Position numbers and translations under genes: made by a program
Shown: positions 2,561-8,036 of the stretch, one piece after another
Layout: each line of letters begins with the position of its first letter
How positions within the stretch are numbered: position 1 is the first letter of the stretch
The notes under the pieces: generated by a model
The model's input: only the letters and a program-made list of their open reading frames with translations
The model's database searches: none
What the model was told of the DNA's origin: nothing
IMG/VR virus record: IMGVR_UViG_2534682255_000011
Span: 1-8,036 of that record
Source: a virus
Lineage: Duplodnaviria; Heunggongvirae; Uroviricota; Caudoviricetes
Length of the DNA: 8,036 bases
Direction: 5' to 3' (one strand)

Positions 2561-2777
2561 GGTGCACCTCCTGCACATCAGCCATGATAATTTTTCCGGC
2601 CTTATCCAGTGCCTGATCGGCTTTTAGCTGCACAAATGCTAAATAATGGAAGATGCATTCTGATTCTCTGGCTGCGTGTTTATGCGCCACACCAGCGATA
2701 GCAGAAATCTCAATAAGTGAATCCATCAGCGTTTTGATAGCGTCTACCGCTGCATCAGGCCATGTTGCATTACACAT
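2553..2777 (-). CDS. Hypothetical small protein (74 aa)
   Basis: Complete track ORF. ATG at 2777 overlaps the stop of the upstream 67-aa ORF (ATGTGTAA). A G-rich SD-like sequence (GGGGGTGG) lies just upstream. Its 3' end carries the SD for the next gene. Confidence 0.5.
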   Translation of the reverse strand: MCNATWPDAAVDAIKTLMDSLIEISAIAGVAHKHAARESECIFHYLAFVQLKADQALDKAGKIIMADVQEVHHA

Positions 2778-2973
2778 GTTCCACCCCCTGACGAATACGG
2801 GCGGCGAATACCATCACGCAGCCAACTGGGGATTGCTGGCGTGCTTCCTGTTCGCTGGTGGCCTCAATGGTAATCACGCGCGGTTGTGCCGTGCTCAGGG
2901 CGATAAAACGCCAGGTGAATTTATTCAGGTTGTGCAAGTCCCGCCCTTGCGGGTGTGTGGTATGATTTCTCAT
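2770..2973 (-). CDS. Hypothetical small protein (67 aa), first gene of the early operon; possibly Kil/Icd-like cell-division inhibitor (tentative)
   Basis: This is the C-terminal 67 codons of track ORF 2770..3513. The internal ATG at 2973 (MRNHTTHPQGRDL...) is preferred because GAGGT lies about 5 nt upstream and the long N-terminal extension would run through the promoter/operator region and the antisense of the divergent gene. The Kil/Icd-like call rests only on position (first small ORF of a P4-like early operon) and a vague resemblance (KFTWRFIALS...VMVFAARI). Confidence 0.45.
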   Translation of the reverse strand: MRNHTTHPQGRDLHNLNKFTWRFIALSTAQPRVITIEATSEQEARQQSPVGCVMVFAARIRQGVEHV

Positions 2974-3008
2974 AGCTACCTCGATACTGTTGCTATCGTT
3001 GGTGGTCA

Positions 3009-3043
3009 GAGGCTGCGAAAGGACGGCAATCCTTTTCAGCCTC
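3009..3043 (-). promoter_or_regulatory. Stable imperfect hairpin in the 5' leader of the early operon
   Basis: GAGGCTG-cg-AAAGGA-cggcaa-TCCTTT-t-CAGCCTC: a 7 bp outer stem and 6 bp inner stem separated by a small bulge. It lies 36-70 nt upstream of the 67-aa ORF start. No U-tract follows on the minus strand, so it is not a canonical intrinsic terminator. Confidence 0.3.
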
Positions 3044-3068
3044 GTTTGCATTGAGTGATAAACACTCA

Positions 3069-3150
3069 ACTGGATTCCAGTATAATCACTAAGTGGAATC
3101 CACTTCAAGCGTTTTGTTTTGGTCTTTTTCGTGTATACTGGATTCCAGTA
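3069..3150. promoter_or_regulatory. Divergent promoter region with three related palindromic operator-like sites
   Basis: Perfect inverted repeats at 3069-3081 (ACTGGA-T-TCCAGT), 3091-3105 (AAGTGGA-A-TCCACTT) and 3136-3150 (TACTGGA-T-TCCAGTA), sharing the core TGGA-W-TCCA. Candidate -10 hexamers overlap them: TATAAT at 3081-3086 and TATACT at 3134-3139 on the plus strand, and on the minus strand TTGAAG (complement of 3104-3109), an 18 nt spacer, then TATACT (complement of 3079-3084). Confidence 0.5.
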
Positions 3151-3169
3151 ATCACAAAGGGAACCAGAA

Positions 3170-3349
3170 ATGGAAAGAGACCATATCAATAACAAATCAC
3201 AGAAATTACAGGCTCGCGCCCCGCATGAAGTTGTTGAGGCTATGGAGCAAGTAAAAGAAACAGGCGAGAGCACTGCGCAATTTATCGTTACAGCCATGCG
3301 AGGCGAGATCAAACGCCGCCAGCGCCGCAAGGCCAAAGAAGCGGAATAG
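3170..3349 (+). CDS. Small DNA-binding protein, ribbon-helix-helix-like (59 aa); putative regulator of the divergent promoters
   Basis: Not in the ORF track (below cut-off). ATG at 3170 with AAGGGA 7 nt upstream; TAG at 3347-3349. Translation is MERDHINNKSQKLQARAPHEVVEAMEQVKETGESTAQFIVTAMRGEIKRRQRRKAKEAE. The pattern fits a beta-strand, helix, turn, helix Arc/CopG-type layout with a basic tail. It is the only plus-strand gene and diverges from the operator region. Confidence 0.55.
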   Translation: MERDHINNKSQKLQARAPHEVVEAMEQVKETGESTAQFIVTAMRGEIKRRQRRKAKEAE

Positions 3350-3437
3350 TCCACCAGCAAGCCAGCACACTGATCACATTGCCCACCAGCCAACAAATCG
3401 CTATGATGTTTGGGCTTATGTTTAGTGTTTTCCCATT

Positions 3438-3470
3438 GGCGACCTCTGATCCGGGTCGCCTTTGTTTTGT
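3438..3470 (+). terminator. Rho-independent terminator downstream of the RHH-like gene
   Basis: GGCGACC / GGTCGCC 7 bp stem (3438-3444 and 3454-3460) with a 9 nt loop, followed by TTTGTTTTGT. The minus-strand orientation lacks a U-tract. Confidence 0.5.
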
Positions 3471-4051
3471 CACTGAATGCGGTTGCCAAAGTAAAACTCA
3501 GGCTGATATTCACGTATCAGCCTTTTTTCTTCTTCCTCCAGCTCACGCTTTTTGCGCTTACATGCCTGTAGCTCCCTCCCCTTCTGACTGGCACTTAACT
3601 GATATTGCTCTTTACGGCGAGAAAAGTCCTGTAATGCGCCCCACGGGATACCATAAGCCCCCGTTTTTCTGATTCCTGGTATCACATTCCTGAATACCCA
3701 GTTACTGAAACGATGGGCGAACGTGCCAGGAGTAACAGCTTTCCGACTTCTGGCGATCAGCTTGTAAAAACCGGATTCAGAAATGAGGCTATGATTTGGA
3801 TTTCCTCGAATACCGTAGCTTAAAGCGACGGTTTTCTTTTCATCCGCATCTAGTGCTTTTAGAGCATCGCGTGAGTTACTTATTTCCAGAGCAACACAAA
3901 CATCCTTTGCAACAAACCACGGATCGCCGTTCAGATACACCACGCGAACGTTCACACTATCAAAGCGCAGAACGACCAGATCACGAAAATCACAGAATTT
4001 TTTTACATGACGTGCGTCACCCTTGCCCGTCACGGCAATATTTTTATTCAT
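3470..4051 (-). CDS. Bro-N domain protein (phage antirepressor-like), 193 aa, with charged coiled-coil-like C-terminus
   Basis: Complete track ORF. The N-terminal region VRVVYLNGDPWFVAKDVCVALEI...ALKALDADEK matches the Bro-N signature. The C-terminal about 50 aa is K/E/R-rich. Confidence 0.8.
   Translation of the reverse strand: MNKNIAVTGKGDARHVKKFCDFRDLVVLRFDSVNVRVVYLNGDPWFVAKDVCVALEISNSRDALKALDADEKKTVALSYGIRGNPNHSLISESGFYKLIARSRKAVTPGTFAHRFSNWVFRNVIPGIRKTGAYGIPWGALQDFSRRKEQYQLSASQKGRELQACKRKKRELEEEEKRLIREYQPEFYFGNRIQ
3500..3530 (+). terminator. Second plus-strand intrinsic terminator-like hairpin, embedded in the 3' coding end of the Bro-N gene
   Basis: AGGCTGATA / TATCAGCCT 9 bp perfect stem (3500-3508 and 3515-3523) with a 6 nt loop, followed by TTTTTTCTTCTT. 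Confidence 0.4.
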
Positions 4052-4071
4052 TTCTTTTTTACCTCACATAC

Positions 4072-4096
4072 AAAAAACCCCGCATTGCACGCGGGG
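4072..4096 (-). terminator. Rho-independent terminator after the int-alpA unit
   Basis: On the minus strand, CCCCGC-gtgcaat-GCGGGG is followed by TTTTTTG (plus-strand 4078-4096 hairpin preceded by an A-run at 4072-4077). It lies 15 nt downstream of the AlpA stop. Confidence 0.6.
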
Positions 4097-4110
4097 TATG
4101 AAAGATATTA

Positions 4111-4314
4111 TTAGTGGGGATTGGCCTGTTCTCGTTGTTTATCTAACCATGCTTCTACATCTCTACGGTGCCAGGTATGTCGTCGTCCAATTCTGAACGG
4201 CTGAGGAAAACCATTATTCTCATCTTTCCAGAAATTGATGAATGCACTCATTGCTCCATATCGCAAGATTTTCATTACGTCTTTAGTAAATAAAATATCT
4301 TCATTGGTATTCAT
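4111..4314 (-). CDS. alpA: AlpA-family (Vis/excisionase-like) small DNA-binding regulator
   Basis: Track ORF 4111..4335. The ATG at 4314 (MNTNEDILFTKDV...) is preferred because GAGGAGG lies 8 nt upstream; the 4335 start would overlap the int stop and has a weak RBS. Small size, position immediately downstream of a P4-type integrase, and a basic/aromatic C-terminal half fit AlpA-like regulators. Confidence 0.7.
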   Translation of the reverse strand: MNTNEDILFTKDVMKILRYGAMSAFINFWKDENNGFPQPFRIGRRHTWHRRDVEAWLDKQREQANPH

Positions 4315-4327
4315 TTGCTGAACCTCC

Positions 4328-5566
4328 TCAACCATTTACTACTCTTAAACCTTTCATACCACCGGATCTATTAATTACCCCTTTTCTCGCATCATCAAAA
4401 AAATCACCGACCCATTGCATCATGATCTTACGCTGTTCTAGATAAATAGTTCTATTATAAATATCTCTTATTTTATCACCACTTTTATGCGCCAATGCAG
4501 CCTCGATTACATCGGGGTTAAATCCCTCCTCATTTAAAAGCGTACTCCACATTGAACGAAAACCATGTAACGTTACAATCCCTTTGAACTTACTGGCAGC
4601 AATTGGGGTCTTGATAGTATTCCTCCCCATAGGCGCATCTTTTGTTCTGGAGGAAAAAAACACATAACGCCCTCTTTTTATTTCCTGCATTGTTCTGAGG
4701 ATACTAATAGCCTGTGATGACAAGGGAACAACATGTTCACGATGGCATTTCATTTTATGCGCGGGGATAATCCACAAGCCAGAATCAAAATCAATCTCTG
4801 ACCACTCTGCTTTAATCGCCTCACCTGGCCTGACCATTGTCAATATCTGGAATAAAAGTGCATTATGAGCTATTTGATAGGTATGAGGCACACTATCCCA
4901 CCAGCTCAGAAATTCAGGCAATCTTTCAACAGGTAGTGCTGCTAATGATTTATTTTTCTTTCCTGTGAATGCAGTCTTTATCTTAAGTAATGGATTTGCT
5001 TTCAATGCTCCACAATTTACAGCATAATTCATAATTTCATTTAATCTTGATATTAATTTTTTTTGCAACGCATTCTTATCGGATACGGCATCCAGAGCAT
5101 TAATAGCTACTGGTGCTGTAATTTTTTCTATACTGTACTTACCAAAGAAAGGAACAAGATATTTGTATACTTCATATTCGATATTATACAGCGTAGGTTT
5201 CCGCAATTCAGATCCCTTTTTAAAAGCGAACCATGCATTAGCAACAGCTTCAAATGTCTGTAGATTTTTTAGTGACATCTCAATTTTACGATTTTTCTTC
5301 TCCGTCACTGGATCAACTCCACGTGCAATCATTCGCCGAAGTTCATCACGTACTTCCCGTGCTTCCGCGAGTGAGAATTCAGGAAAACGTCCTATCGTGT
5401 ATGTCTGCCGTTTCTTCGTTATCGGATGGCTATAACGGAAACGCCACACTTTCCCACCGGCTTTACTCACATTCAGCAATAAACCGAACCCATCATAAAC
5501 GGCATAGTCCTTTTCACGTGGTTTCATCCCCTTAACTTCAGTCACGGTTAATGGCTTTACCGACAT
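4328..5566 (-). CDS. int: Tyrosine site-specific integrase, P4-like
   Basis: 412 aa. The N-terminus (LTVTEVKGMKPREKDYAVYDGFGLLLNVSKAGGKVWRFRY) matches the arm-binding domain of P4-family integrases. The C-terminus has HGFRSMWST...IRDIYNRTIY, consistent with the catalytic H/R/Y region. GAGGG lies 6 nt upstream of the ATG. The gene is visibly AT-rich compared with its neighbours. Confidence 0.9.
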   Translation of the reverse strand: MSVKPLTVTEVKGMKPREKDYAVYDGFGLLLNVSKAGGKVWRFRYSHPITKKRQTYTIGRFPEFSLAEAREVRDELRRMIARGVDPVTEKKNRKIEMSLKNLQTFEAVANAWFAFKKGSELRKPTLYNIEYEVYKYLVPFFGKYSIEKITAPVAINALDAVSDKNALQKKLISRLNEIMNYAVNCGALKANPLLKIKTAFTGKKNKSLAALPVERLPEFLSWWDSVPHTYQIAHNALLFQILTMVRPGEAIKAEWSEIDFDSGLWIIPAHKMKCHREHVVPLSSQAISILRTMQEIKRGRYVFFSSRTKDAPMGRNTIKTPIAASKFKGIVTLHGFRSMWSTLLNEEGFNPDVIEAALAHKSGDKIRDIYNRTIYLEQRKIMMQWVGDFFDDARKGVINRSGGMKGLRVVNG

Positions 5567-5727
5567 CTATCGCCCTCATTTTTTAGTCCGTCATGTAGTC
5601 CATTCAAGCCAATAACAAGCGATAAACTAACTCATTATCAAGCAAAGAGAGGAAACTCATAAAATCACAACTCATTGAAAAGACTATGAAACGACACCAG
5701 AACATACAAACAGGTAAGAAATGTACC

Positions 5728-6735
5728 CTACATCCAAAATGACGCAATCCGGGAGTTTCGTGGCGTTCCGGTGATACTGCCGTCCGCCGCCGCCCGTTCA
5801 CCTTCACGAAGCCAGATCCCCTGGTTATTCAGTTCGCGTTTCTGCTCAGGGGCAATCAGCCCGCGACAATGCGGACACATCAGACGGGCAGCCTGACCGG
5901 CAGCCACAAAATCCGGGTTATTCCGGTATCCGGTCATGTTATCCATCACCGGCTGAAAATATTCCCCGCAGTGCGGACACGGCCAGTACCACCGGCGGCG
6001 GTCTCCCCGGTTATACAGTGACAGGATCCCCGTTGTTGGCGGTGCCTCATGTGCGCCACCACAACGCCATTTGGTATCGGTGATATCCCGCCCCGGTGAA
6101 CTCTCGACCAGGGTCATCCCCGAGGACATAAAGGTGGTGGTACGCTTTGAGGCCAGCGTGAAGGCATCCCCTTCCCCGTCCACATTTTCAGGGAAACGGT
6201 CATAATCCGTCAGCGCCACACGACGGTAATCCGAAGAGGAAAAGACGGTGATCGACGGCCAGCCAATCTTCAGGAAGGAGCCGTCAAGAAACATTTTATC
6301 GTGGACGTTGTTGTCATTACGGGAAGGACTGAGGCGCTTGCTGACCTCCGGACTGTGGCGAAACGTCCTGGAAAGACGCGTTCTGGAATGCTCACGCGCC
6401 TTCGTCTCAGTCATCTGCACCACCAGCATATCCGCCGGATCACAGATGATGCCGTACACAATCCAGCCATCAATCAGCCCTTCGGTTTTCCCGGTTCGCG
6501 CAGGTCCCACAAACACCACCGCGTCATATTCACGGGCTGATAATGTATTAATGGGGTCAATCATATAGGGCGTCAGCGATGACTCCCACGGACCGGAAGT
6601 ATTGGCTCCCCGTGGAACCCGCATATAACGCCTGATGGCTTCCGCTACTGGTAACCGGCTGGGTGGGCGAAACAGCGAGGCCACTTCGCGCCAGATATCG
6701 GATGCGCGGCTATGGCTCTCGTTCACCTGATTCAC
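5728..6735 (-). pseudogene. Terminase large subunit (lambda gpA-like), N-terminal 335 codons only; truncated
   Basis: The translation aligns by eye with the lambda gpA N-terminus as recalled from memory (SLFRP near the start; CPHCGE zinc-ribbon-like motif; GIWLREG), and VFVGPARTGKTE looks like a P-loop. The ORF stops at 5728 at roughly half the length of lambda gpA, and the 160 bp downstream are AT-rich non-coding sequence running into int. The track start is GTG at 6735, overlapping the Nu1-like stop (GTGA). Confidence 0.8.
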
Positions 6736-7208: not shown

Positions 7209-7384
7209 TTACATCCCTCCACATAAACCGCAGAACAGAAGTGACTCTGTTTTTTTGTAAAGAAATGCCGCCATATAAAGATGTCGAACAAAAAACAACC
7301 ACAATCATCATCTTTTTAATACTAACAGCATTAAAAACAACAAGTTACCATCATGATGATGATGACGATAAAATCACAAAAATG

Positions 7385-7420
7385 CGCCTTTTTCCGCGCC
7401 CGCCCGCCCCGTGTTCAGGC
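7385..7420. other. Candidate lambda-type cos site (cosN-like GC-rich core) upstream of the terminase small subunit gene
   Basis: Minus-strand reading gives GGGGCGGGCGGGCGCGGAAAAAGGCGCATTTTTG, resembling the lambda left end GGGCGGCGACCTCGCGGGTTTTCGC (from memory). It lies about 180 bp upstream of the Nu1-like start and is followed by an AT-rich tract. Exact cut positions are not determinable from sequence. Confidence 0.4.
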
Positions 7421-7669
7421 CCACCCCACCAGGAGGACCCGCAAAAATGATAATGGTTATCATTTGCAACAAAATCCAGTTTCTTCCACCATCGCACCGG
7501 ACTGGCGACTATGAGGGGACAACACCGCGCTCCGTTAACGCGGTAAACCCCGGTGTGTATCGTTTTTGATTATCCCCGCACACTCTCGCAGAGGAGTCTC
7601 CCTGTCGGGCTGCGGTCTCTGTTAATGCAGGAATACGGCGACAATACCGCGCATGAATAATAAGGTCGC

Positions 7670-7894
7670 TCAACACACTGGCTGTAATGCAGCGGATACC
7701 ATGCGGCATTTAGCGGCATTCATCGTACACTCAACGGTTAGCTCTTCATTCGTGGCATTCACCTGAAAGGTCCTGGAGTGTAATTGCGTACATTTACCAC
7801 TGAACGAACCTTCAACAAGAACACGACCACGCTGCAAAATACGGAACGGAATTGTTCCCTGAAAAGGCTTTACGGTTACCAATAATTTCTTCAT
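7670..7894 (-). CDS. Hypothetical small protein (74 aa) between the lysis module and cos
   Basis: Track ORF 7670..7912 begins at TTG. The internal ATG at 7894 (MKKLLVTVKPF...) has GGAGAA 5 nt upstream. Four Cys residues; no recognisable family. Confidence 0.4.
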   Translation of the reverse strand: MKKLLVTVKPFQGTIPFRILQRGRVLVEGSFSGKCTQLHSRTFQVNATNEELTVECTMNAAKCRMVSAALQPVC

Positions 7895-7917
7895 GCATTC
7901 TCCGAATAACAAAAATA

Positions 7918-8036
7918 CTAGTTAATACACTGAGTGCGGATATATTCCTGAAGCATTCTCAATGCTGCCTGGTCGCTGATGATTCCGTCTCTGATACCGA
8001 GAACGTTTCGTCCAGCAACCGGAGAGAGTTCGACGG
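7918..8036 (-). CDS. Rz-like i-spanin, C-terminal fragment (partial; start beyond window end)
   Basis: Minus-strand frame is open from the window end to TAG at 7918-7920. The C-terminus ...AALRMLQEYIRTQCIN resembles the lambda Rz C-terminus ...QKQLEGTQKYINEQCR (from memory). Its position just upstream of cos and Nu1 is as expected for a lambdoid late region. Confidence 0.45.
   Translation of the reverse strand, partial: VELSPVAGRNVLGIRDGIISDQAALRMLQEYIRTQCIN

Follow-up and report, generated by a model that had tools for sequence, protein, structure and literature searches.

Three conserved palindromic sites and a small YlcI/YnfO-type protein form a predicted repressor-operator module in a satellite embedded in a lambdoid prophage

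The window analysed here, a stretch of DNA of 8,036 bp, matches many chromosomes of E. coli O157:H7, O145, O121 and O103 at 100% identity, and DNA and protein searches of the phage collection returned no match. In the RefSeq record of strain 13E0725, the element to which it belongs measures ~10.4 kb and carries, in order, genes for an integrase, an AlpA-like helix-turn-helix protein, a Bro-N protein, a 59-aa 'YlcI/YnfO family protein' and an Icd-like protein, then small genes and genes for DUF4222, a primase, SSB and a ClpP-protease/capsid fusion. RefSeq annotation and Pfam place its insertion point in gpA, the terminase large-subunit gene of a lambdoid prophage: the gpA reading frame is interrupted at F-W-M with a junction core of ~CATCCAA, its N-terminal part lying at 5728-6735 of the window and its C-terminal part at 3434-4564 of L001, and the split element sits between a Nu1-like gene and the portal/capsid genes. 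With integrase, AlpA-type and primase genes inside a prophage late gene, the element has the gene content and location of a helper-embedded PICI (HE-PICI), in the arrangement described by Barcia-Cruz et al. 2023 (PMC10111431). The leftward operon continues after its first, Icd-like gene with genes for 74-aa, 203-aa, 57-aa and DUF4222 proteins, followed by the primase gene. The genes around the control region are:

2770..2973, minus strand: Icd-like gene (67 aa), first of the leftward operon, from gene calls and family searches
3170..3349, plus strand: gene of the 59-aa YlcI/YnfO-type protein, a predicted ribbon-helix-helix repressor, from sequence and predicted structure
3470-4051, minus strand: Bro-N gene, from Pfam and annotation
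4111-4335, minus strand: AlpA-like helix-turn-helix gene, from Pfam and annotation
4328-5566, minus strand: integrase gene, from Pfam and annotation

A 196-bp gap separates the gene of the 59-aa protein (plus strand, 3170-3349) from the Icd-like gene (minus strand, start at 2973). An earlier note, made from the letters alone, had described three related perfect palindromes in this gap, and all three were found at its positions (3069-3081, 3091-3105 and 3136-3150), with arms of 6-7 bp:

3069..3081, no strand: predicted operator site 1, ACTGGA-T-TCCAGT, perfect with 6-bp arms, core CTGGATTCCAG at 3070-3080, from palindrome and repeat checks
3091..3105, no strand: predicted operator site 2, AAGTGGA-A-TCCACTT, perfect with 7-bp arms, core GTGGAATCCAC at 3093-3103
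3136..3150, no strand: predicted operator site 3, TACTGGA-T-TCCAGTA, perfect with 7-bp arms, core CTGGATTCCAG at 3138-3148

Sites 1 and 3 share an identical 14-mer. Perfect palindromes with arms of at least 6 bp are called 16 times in the window (~13 distinct sites), and the three sites account for five of these calls. The 8036-bp window contains exactly three copies of the core TGGAWTCCA, all inside the same 82 bp, and the 24.7 kb that comprise the entire satellite and its prophage flanks hold no further copy. By chance 0.07 exact matches would be expected, and three copies were reached in 0 of 200 dinucleotide-preserving shuffles of the window, a count that already speaks against the palindromes being chance matches, a reading whose one argument is the short site length. 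The spacing had been put at two to three helical turns; this holds for sites 1 and 2, which lie 23 bp (~2.2 turns) apart from centre to centre, and fails for sites 2 and 3, which are 45 bp (~4.3 turns) apart.

The sites had also been said to overlap -10 and -35 hexamers in both directions, and a promoter scan together with family conservation confirmed that the overlap is real. The promoters and hairpins of the region are:

3079..3108, minus strand: promoter of the icd-like/primase operon, TTGAAG (3108..3103)-18 bp-TATACT (3084..3079), from the promoter scan
3134..3139, plus strand: -10 hexamer TATACT of the rightward promoter of the 59-aa gene, conserved family-wide
3059..3086, plus strand: second promoter-like site, TAAACA-16-TATAAT, from the promoter scan and comparison of relatives
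3009..3043, plus strand: conserved hairpin between the leftward start codon and site 1, from the consensus fold
3438..3523, no strand: terminator-like hairpins, one at 3438-3460 (plus strand) that ends the 59-aa gene and one at 3500-3523 on both strands

In the leftward promoter, the TTGA of the -35 hexamer hardly varies within the family and the -10 hexamer (AGTATA) is invariant within the close subclade; site 1 overlaps this -10 hexamer and the predicted start, and site 2 lies within the spacer, abutting the -35 hexamer. The rightward TATACT is among the most conserved columns of the region (1.6-2.0 bits per column in 45 distinct sequences), and it went uncalled by the promoter scan because its -35 is poor, a T-rich tract standing ahead of it and a good -35 hexamer being absent. 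Site 3 starts within this -10 hexamer and covers the predicted start site, and is therefore the predicted autoregulatory site. The second rightward promoter-like site is the best consensus match of the region and has site 1 in its spacer, and it is specific to the window, its final T being missing from all close relatives.

The hairpin at 3009-3043 has a plus-strand consensus fold of -24.55 kcal/mol with 14 pairs, ten of them with compensatory changes and many G-U, and folds as the minus strand at -10.64 kcal/mol with A-C mismatches. It thus appears to be selected as plus-strand RNA, opposite to the leftward leader, and would therefore be terminator-like; it may provide a second control layer as an antisense RNA to that leader. 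An Rfam search of the whole window at E<=1 gave no match and no immunity RNA of the C4/isrK type. The hairpins at 3438-3523 separate the 59-aa gene from the convergent Bro-N gene.

The 59-aa protein scores 72.3 bits against NCBIfam NF041551 (YlcI/YnfO) over residues 9-50, with a cut-off of 30, which places it in this family, one that carries no functional assignment; it falls below the Pfam thresholds. We predict a strand at about residues 10-17, a helix at 19-28, a turn at G32-E33-S34 and a second helix at 35-58, with K12, Q14 and R16 probably facing the DNA, and the protein ends in an invariant basic tail, EIKRRQR. In the family alignment residues 13, 15 and 17 are always hydrophobic, and residues 12, 14 and 16 are polar, variable or an invariant Arg. 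The turn and strand end of ribbon-helix-helix proteins are both recognizable: G32 is nearly invariant and E33 invariant, followed by S34, the strand ends in R16-A-P18, and hhalign aligns R16-A-P18 and G32-E33-S34 with R13-W-P15 and G30-R-S32 of Arc. The AlphaFold model, of the monomer only, gives the helices 19-28 and 35-58 at pLDDT above 90 and draws residues 8-16 as short helices (pLDDT 64-81), not as an extended strand. Structural similarity to solved ribbon-helix-helix members was found; Foldseek against the PDB with the monomer model returned noise, as did a sequence search of the PDB, and curated ribbon-helix-helix sequence models gave no significant match, with PSK_trans_fac, CB_ParB_C and HicB of Pfam below threshold (best E ~0.01). 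The possibility of a type II antitoxin was considered and rejected, the gene being followed by no annotated partner gene and instead by the terminator-like hairpins and the convergent Bro-N gene.

A search of related elements for the palindromes showed that their layout is conserved across 58 Enterobacterales relatives. The comparison covered 58 loci encoding relatives of the 59-aa protein, and subsets of 57, 55 and 46 non-identical loci and of 45 distinct sequences were used where indicated. In all of them the protein occupies the same place, its gene (plus strand) and the leftward operon (minus strand) diverging from the intergenic region; the side of the protein's gene usually has an integrase, and most loci carry an icd-like gene or a primase at the opposite side. 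A scan for perfect palindromes had at first confined the sites to the closest subclade, a result overturned by alignment and a mismatch-tolerant motif search: the general site is an 11-bp (G/C)TG-N5-CA(C/G), present three times at ~31, 76 and 99-112 bp upstream of the ATG of the protein, and the perfect symmetry is a property of the window's centre, GATTC, other classes usually being asymmetric there. A blind search for the most-repeated 9-mer recovered a thrice-repeated motif at these positions in ~45 of 57 loci. Of the 55 loci examined, 53 have the 9-bp core of site 3 beginning 31 bp upstream of the ATG and 47 have that of site 2 beginning 76 bp upstream, most others placing it within 3 bp of this position; the counterpart of site 1 lies at about -99 to -112, often in the opposite orientation to sites 2 and 3. 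The upstream region is collinear in nearly all relatives, with, from the leftward operon, a GC-rich hairpin, site 1, TATA(A/G), site 2, (G/T)TCAA, a T-rich tract, GTATACTG running into site 3, a ribosome-binding site and the ATG. Site 3 is conserved as GTATACTG-N5-CAC and site 2, to a high degree, as GTG..CAC followed by TCAA. Sites 2 and 3 stand a fixed 45 bp apart, a distance that reflects the back-to-back promoters; sites 1 and 2 are 22 to 36 bp apart, depending on the element, and strict phasing is therefore unlikely there. Subtypes other than that of the window place site 1 immediately after the leftward start. The genes convergent with the repressor gene have antirepressor-type domains (AntA, Bro-N, ANT, ORF6N) in about one third of cases, and the remainder include AlpA or the integrase itself; these genes differ between elements, and therefore no single partner is universal.

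The central 5 bp are alike at all sites of one element and different between elements: among 46 non-identical loci, sites 2 and 3 differ at 0.63 of the central 5 nt within an element versus 3.36 between elements. In the close subclade, the outer CTGG...CCA is invariant and the inner bases shift together at the three sites: the window, L002 and L004 read ATT (apart from an ATG at site 1 of L004), L005 reads mostly AGT (with CCA replaced by ACA), and L006, L011 and L012 read CAC (apart from one CGC in L012). Since the centres change in concert between elements, even between elements within one genome, a fixed host factor cannot explain them, and together with the three exact cores against 0.07 expected this effectively refutes the reading of the palindromes as chance matches or host-factor sites. 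Co-resident elements differ in operator class in all ten pairs available from six genomes, a pattern that fits heteroimmunity and, on a rough estimate, is not statistically decisive.

The changes in the sites are accompanied by changes in the predicted DNA-facing strand of the 59-aa protein. In the 46 non-identical loci, operator distance correlates with residues 12 and 14 at a Mantel r=0.70; with the rest of the protein removed in a partial Mantel test r is 0.60, a value reached by 0 of 5000 permutations, and neighbouring spacer DNA correlates only at 0.26. The information about operator class per residue peaks at residue 14 (0.72), followed by residue 12 (0.66), and R16 is invariant, as are the outer bases of the site. 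Because protein and operators are adjacent, part of the covariation reflects shared descent, which inflates its raw value; the partial Mantel test, a chimera and module swaps served as controls for it and reduce this objection, which is still present. One strand motif pairs with one core across different genera, and at least nine operator specificity classes were distinguished among Enterobacterales satellites, with the following pairs of strand motif and core:

KSQQLNARFP with GAATCGC
KSQMTTVRIP with GAAATAC
KS(L/I)Q.SVRLP with GAACACC
KSKKLEARVP with GTCAGCC
KSQALKARVP with GTGGCCC
KSQKMSARVP with GGCACCC
KSQK(L/V/I)QARAP with GGA(T/C)TCC in most carriers
Exceptions to KSQK(L/V/I)QARAP: L005 with GGAGTAC/GGATTAC, and site 3 of L003, L008 and L009 with GTACTCC

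Loci outside the sample followed the same pairing. The island EcCICFT073 (NC_004431.1 1377930-1388654), which encodes a homologous YlcI/YnfO protein with the strand motif KSQALKARVP, has an operator set composed of GGTGTGGCCCAC twice and CTGTCCCCCAC; P0086, with KSKKLEARVP (E. coli contig L064), has GTGTCAGCCAC at three of three positions, as predicted, P0075, with KSQKMSARVP (a Serratia contig), has (C/G)TGGCACCCAC three times, as predicted, and P0106 showed a near match to the closest class.

L064 is in addition a natural chimera, sharing 98.2% identity with the window from ~3210 (uninterrupted from ~3280) to 4549, a stretch that takes in the protein's C-terminal half, Bro-N, AlpA and the beginning of the integrase gene. 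Identity is only ~60-70% across the protein's N-terminal half, the operators and the hairpin, so that a different N-terminal half goes together with a different, matching operator set. From this break it follows that operator type goes with the N-terminal half of the 59-aa-type protein. The chimera also bears on whether the sites could instead be bound by another protein of the element, namely AlpA, Bro-N or the integrase. AlpA is an established regulator of Gram-negative PICIs, and Vibrio PLE has a Bro-family protein that acts as a repressor, according to a citation in PMC10111431, which is what such a reading can draw on. In L064, however, Bro-N and AlpA genes and an integrase gene start 98% identical to those of the window stand beside a different operator set. 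Conversely, L002, L004 and L005 have the operator class of the window or a near variant, no AlpA or Bro-N homolog detected at E<=1 and integrases that are 25-35% identical, and across the family the genes next to the module vary greatly, AntA, Bro-N, AlpA and integrase being among them. We thus regard a different binder from the element as very unlikely; none of AlpA, Bro-N, integrase and primase tracks the sites. The earlier note had named the adjacent ribbon-helix-helix-like protein as the best candidate, and the covariation, the out-of-sample matches and the L064 chimera together argue for this choice.

Short repeated sites within a primase-encoding satellite could also be replication-origin iterons for a primase/helicase, as in the ori/crr of P4, and one operator class, GGTGAACA, is the reverse complement of TGTTCACC, which we take to be the P4 iteron. 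The replication genes, though, do not go with the sites. L021 is 96.7% identical to the window over these genes (1628-2926) and yet has another protein and operator class; more generally, the primases closest to that of the window (64-77% identity; L021, L037, L051, L053 and L058) are paired with other operator classes, and in the two loci of the window's class with a primase hit, L004 and L005, the primases are ~50% identical. The sites moreover stand at fixed distances from the promoter hexamers and the start codon of the protein, and a role as iterons is, in our estimate, as improbable as binding by one of the other proteins.

Still less probable is that the protein is a packaging-specificity factor acting on a cosB-like array. 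This idea starts from E. coli K-12, where YlcI (DLP12), like YnfO (Qin) a member of the same sequence family (NCBIfam NF041551 / Pfam DUF3950), adjoins cos/nohD, and from the small terminase subunit of L065, which has a weak DUF3950 N-terminus. The K-12 YlcI is, however, a distant relative whose upstream region is without the three-site array, no cos-like sequence was found near the sites, and the satellite's copies of the cos-proximal segment of the helper lie elsewhere (L001 5244-5446 and 7890-7983). A 9-mer at 3438, GGCGACCTC, which is common to lambda cosN, was dismissed as being at chance level (E=2.2).

The sites, their positional conservation, their concerted change, their covariation with the protein and their overlap with the promoters are computational observations, and in our judgement the three palindromes are probably operators of the 59-aa protein, through which it would keep the satellite silent. 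Most likely the protein is a ribbon-helix-helix repressor that regulates its own gene and acts through three operators, a logic like that of Arc/Mnt. We infer binding, its stoichiometry, the sign of regulation and the route of induction from sequence, and picture them as follows. One dimer would occupy each 11-bp site and insert a two-stranded sheet into the major groove. There the outer G/C pairs of (G/C)TG...CA(C/G), which do not vary, would be read by R16, which does not vary either, and the central 5 bp (GATTC in the window) by the two variable positions 12 and 14, occupied by K and Q in the window. Occupation of sites 1 and 2 would block RNA polymerase and turn off the icd-like/replication operon, and occupation of site 3 would provide negative autoregulation of the 59-aa protein; protein and operators would form a swappable immunity cassette. 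The likeliest routes of induction would be helper-triggered, AlpA-driven transcription that enters at the alpA/bro end and runs antisense through the gene of the repressor, or a Bro/Ant-type antirepressor.

The locus had earlier been read as a bistable switch. A two-regulator switch of the CI/Cro type does not agree with the genes, as the first leftward genes, which across elements encode Icd-like or unrelated small proteins, have no DNA-binding family match and a single protein covaries with the sites. A serious residual alternative, unlikely and yet well ahead of the others weighed here, is that the 59-aa protein does bind the sites and is not the maintenance repressor, acting instead as a Cro-like or transient regulator, a fine-tuner, an activator or an autoregulator only. 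AlpA expression alone is reported to induce excision and replication of EcCICFT073, which carries the module (PMC6092414), and the YlcI/YnfO protein is therefore no insurmountable block; the rightward promoter, without a -35 hexamer, might need activation, and no second regulator or lysogeny-type phenotype is known. On the other hand, sites 1 and 2 of the window are placed on the spacer, -10 and start of the leftward promoter, and site 1 of other subtypes directly after the start, which are positions of repression and not of activation, and the 59-aa gene stands alone with its own promoter and terminator, in a direction opposite to all else, as maintenance repressors do.

Taken as a repressor-operator module, the locus is closest in logic to the Arc/Mnt region of P22 and closest in niche to Stl/Rpr, and in sequence it is a member of neither. 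In the immI region of P22, the ribbon-helix-helix repressors Arc and Mnt act at the overlapping divergent promoters Pant and Pmnt, with the sar antisense RNA. The 59-aa protein resembles Arc in being a small, predicted ribbon-helix-helix protein whose strand residues align with Q9, N11 and R13 of Arc, and the locus resembles immI in its operator between -35 and -10, its divergent overlapping promoters, the autoregulation proposed here, a possible antisense RNA beside it and Bro/Ant antirepressor-type genes nearby. Unlike in P22, there is no significant sequence similarity to Arc/Mnt (hhalign probability 11-17%), three separate 11-bp sites stand in place of one 21-bp tetramer operator, one regulator in place of two, and the target is a satellite replication operon rather than an antirepressor gene. 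Repressors of the MetJ, CopG and omega type place one dimer on each short repeated site, as proposed here for the 59-aa protein; in contrast to their contiguous arrays, the spacing of the sites here is set by promoter geometry. With P4 immunity the locus shares the predicted control of a leftward early/replication operon, an integrase-AlpA-primase satellite and a structured RNA in the leader region; unlike the CI RNA of P4 (seqA/seqC; Rfam C4/isrK), it has no C4/isrK match, its predicted control is centred on a protein and operators, and its hairpin appears to be under selection as RNA of the other strand than the leader. Stl/Rpr of SaPIs and Gram-positive PICIs offer the same arrangement of a lone regulator gene divergent from the excision/replication operon (PMC6092414). 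They differ in being larger, unrelated helix-turn-helix proteins for which derepression by a helper-phage protein has been demonstrated, and in that AlpA activation coexists with the YlcI/YnfO module.

The satellite of the window belongs to the same class as the AlpA-dependent Gram-negative PICIs (EcCICFT073, EcCIEDL933, EcCIMP1) and the helper-embedded PICIs. EcCICFT073 carries, in order, genes for an integrase, a helix-turn-helix regulator and a small hypothetical protein, the YlcI/YnfO gene on the opposite strand, an Icd-like gene, and genes for DUF4222, primase, SSB, PerC, and capsid and decoration proteins. As judged from its sequence, the same unrecognised protein-plus-sites module is present in this island. 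The high-numbered RefSeq locus tags of its two small genes suggest that both were likely added after the original annotation. A 57-aa hypothetical gene follows the YlcI/YnfO gene of EcCICFT073 (C_RS30120) on the same strand.

Fillol-Salom et al. called a global repressor of Gram-negative PICIs 'unclear' and the contrast with the Stl/Rpr repressor of Gram-positive islands a mystery (PMC6092414). The papers on HE-PICIs (PMC10111431), cf-PICIs and EcCIMP1 treat only AlpA, Bro proteins and immunity RNAs, and a 2026 survey lists YlcI/YnfO as a 'prophage-associated protein' in cf-PICIs (E. cloacae). Full-text literature searches on the YlcI/YnfO family and on ribbon-helix-helix proteins of PICIs, whose coverage included only a minor share of the papers in subscription journals, found no description of its role or operators, and no repressor phenotype is reported for the YlcI/YnfO protein of EcCICFT073. 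We put forward tentatively, and as a whole with somewhat less than even confidence, a wider reading in which the YlcI/YnfO-type protein would fill the place of the 'missing' master repressor in Gram-negative PICIs (EcCICFT073, capsid-forming and helper-embedded) and determine their immunity, with at least nine mutually non-cross-reacting classes set by a code of two strand residues, a second layer consisting of a cis-antisense RNA that ends at the conserved hairpin, and AlpA overriding or silencing the repressor. Since the module occurs in EcCICFT073 and in Enterobacterales relatives, strains and reporters that already exist allow the repressor question to be tested directly.

Ribbon-helix-helix repressors that use several operators are known devices, and the interest of the present one lies in its location and in its clean natural specificity series. 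The matched protein and operator variants form a natural series of at least nine classes in which two residues hold most of the information, which makes the family a compact model for the recognition of DNA by ribbon-helix-helix proteins, and the YlcI/YnfO variants could supply orthogonal repressor/operator pairs. In E. coli O157 and other Shiga-toxin-producing strains, the module would control a satellite that sits in the terminase gene of a resident lambdoid prophage, and it may thereby influence whether this prophage can complete packaging.

Conservation in the 59-aa YlcI/YnfO-type protein, the inferred ribbon-helix-helix repressor, was highest in a basic tail that closes its helix 2, E-I-K-R-R-Q-R (residues 46-52, window 3305-3325), which was invariant among 36 aligned homologs, almost so among the 58 loci, and more conserved than the predicted DNA-reading strand. 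This tail may touch the backbone of the DNA, hold dimers together or serve as the target of an inducer. In another E. coli element (L065 1879-2241), the gene that follows the YlcI/YnfO homolog encodes a small terminase (Terminase_2) of 120 aa that matches DUF3950 weakly, hinting that the predicted DNA-binding module also serves in packaging proteins.

The same combination of protein, operators and Icd-like gene was found in the model PICI EcCICFT073 (L063 25242-26052, corresponding to NC_004431.1 1380242-1381052), where its two small genes carry the late RefSeq locus tags C_RS30120 and C_RS30125 and the YlcI/YnfO gene is followed on the same strand by a gene for a 57-aa hypothetical protein. 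No description of this module was found in the accessible PICI literature.

Between the start codon of the leftward operon and the first operator site lies a further conserved element:

3009-3043, + strand: conserved hairpin (consensus fold), followed by GTTTGCATT to 3052

Across 21 diverse relatives, the + strand consensus fold of this terminator-like hairpin reached -24.55 kcal/mol with 14 pairs, 10 of which showed compensatory changes, and with many G-U, while the - strand fold was far weaker (-10.64 kcal/mol), the same pairs becoming A-C mismatches. Given this difference between the strands, the hairpin is apparently selected as a rightward RNA, which seems to oppose, as an antisense, the leftward operon's leader and ribosome-binding site. 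The sequence TGgTATGAT at 2958-2966 may be an extended -10, and a start there might yield a predicted RNA of ~75 nt, but the motif falls within coding sequence. Rfam gave no match to the hairpin. A second short transcription unit could lie immediately 3' of the 59-aa gene, within the 'Bro zone', a region from which immunity RNAs have been reported in other satellites; here, 3379-3470 (+) might encode a separate short RNA, judging by two features:

3379-3407, + strand: promoter-like site (TTGCCC-17-TATGAT), from sequence
3438-3460, + strand: terminator-like hairpin and T run, ~30 nt past the promoter-like site

The 59-aa gene is also where a natural recombinant, L064 (GCA_025946005.1 ABJCOY010000140.1), changes class when compared with window 2770-4549. 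Its crossover falls somewhere from about codon 14 to codon 37 of the gene; to the right it is 98% identical to the window throughout, and its N-terminal half of the protein, its operators and its hairpin are of another class than the window's. Elements of this kind occur two or three to a genome in six genomes (L004/L043, L005/L011/L045, L023/L041, L025/L028, L031/L044 and L035/L040/L054), and operator classes differed in all 10 of the within-genome pairs, a small and not decisive sample that agrees with what would be expected if cross-repression between co-resident elements were disallowed. The operators of L052, L056, L058 and L059 (GGTGAACACCAC) form one class and contain GGTGAACA, the reverse complement of the P4 origin iteron, TGTTCACC; with four of the eight bases constant throughout the family, this likeness is possibly accidental.

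The helper prophage carries a segment that recurs inside the satellite:

7245-7447: helper segment upstream of the Nu1-like gene (cos-proximal region)

In L001, further DNA of the same element and prophage, a 204-bp copy (5244-5446, 85% identical) and a partial 95-bp copy (7890-7983, 83% identical), both outside the window, lie on either side of the protease/capsid fusion gene of the satellite and probably represent the satellite's packaging site or sites. The longest perfect palindrome of the window, AAATGATAATGGTTATCATTT (7445-7465, 9-bp arms), also lies in the helper, upstream of the Nu1-like gene; DLP12 has a similar AAATGATAATAATTATCAT in the cos-proximal region adjoining ylcI. The satellite itself splits the prophage gpA gene, encoding the terminase large subunit, at codons F-W-M (window 5567-5730 and 5728-6735; L001 3434-4564), and a short common core, about CATCCAA, marks the junction at about 5724-5730. 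An intact terminase is beyond the helper's reach before the satellite excises.
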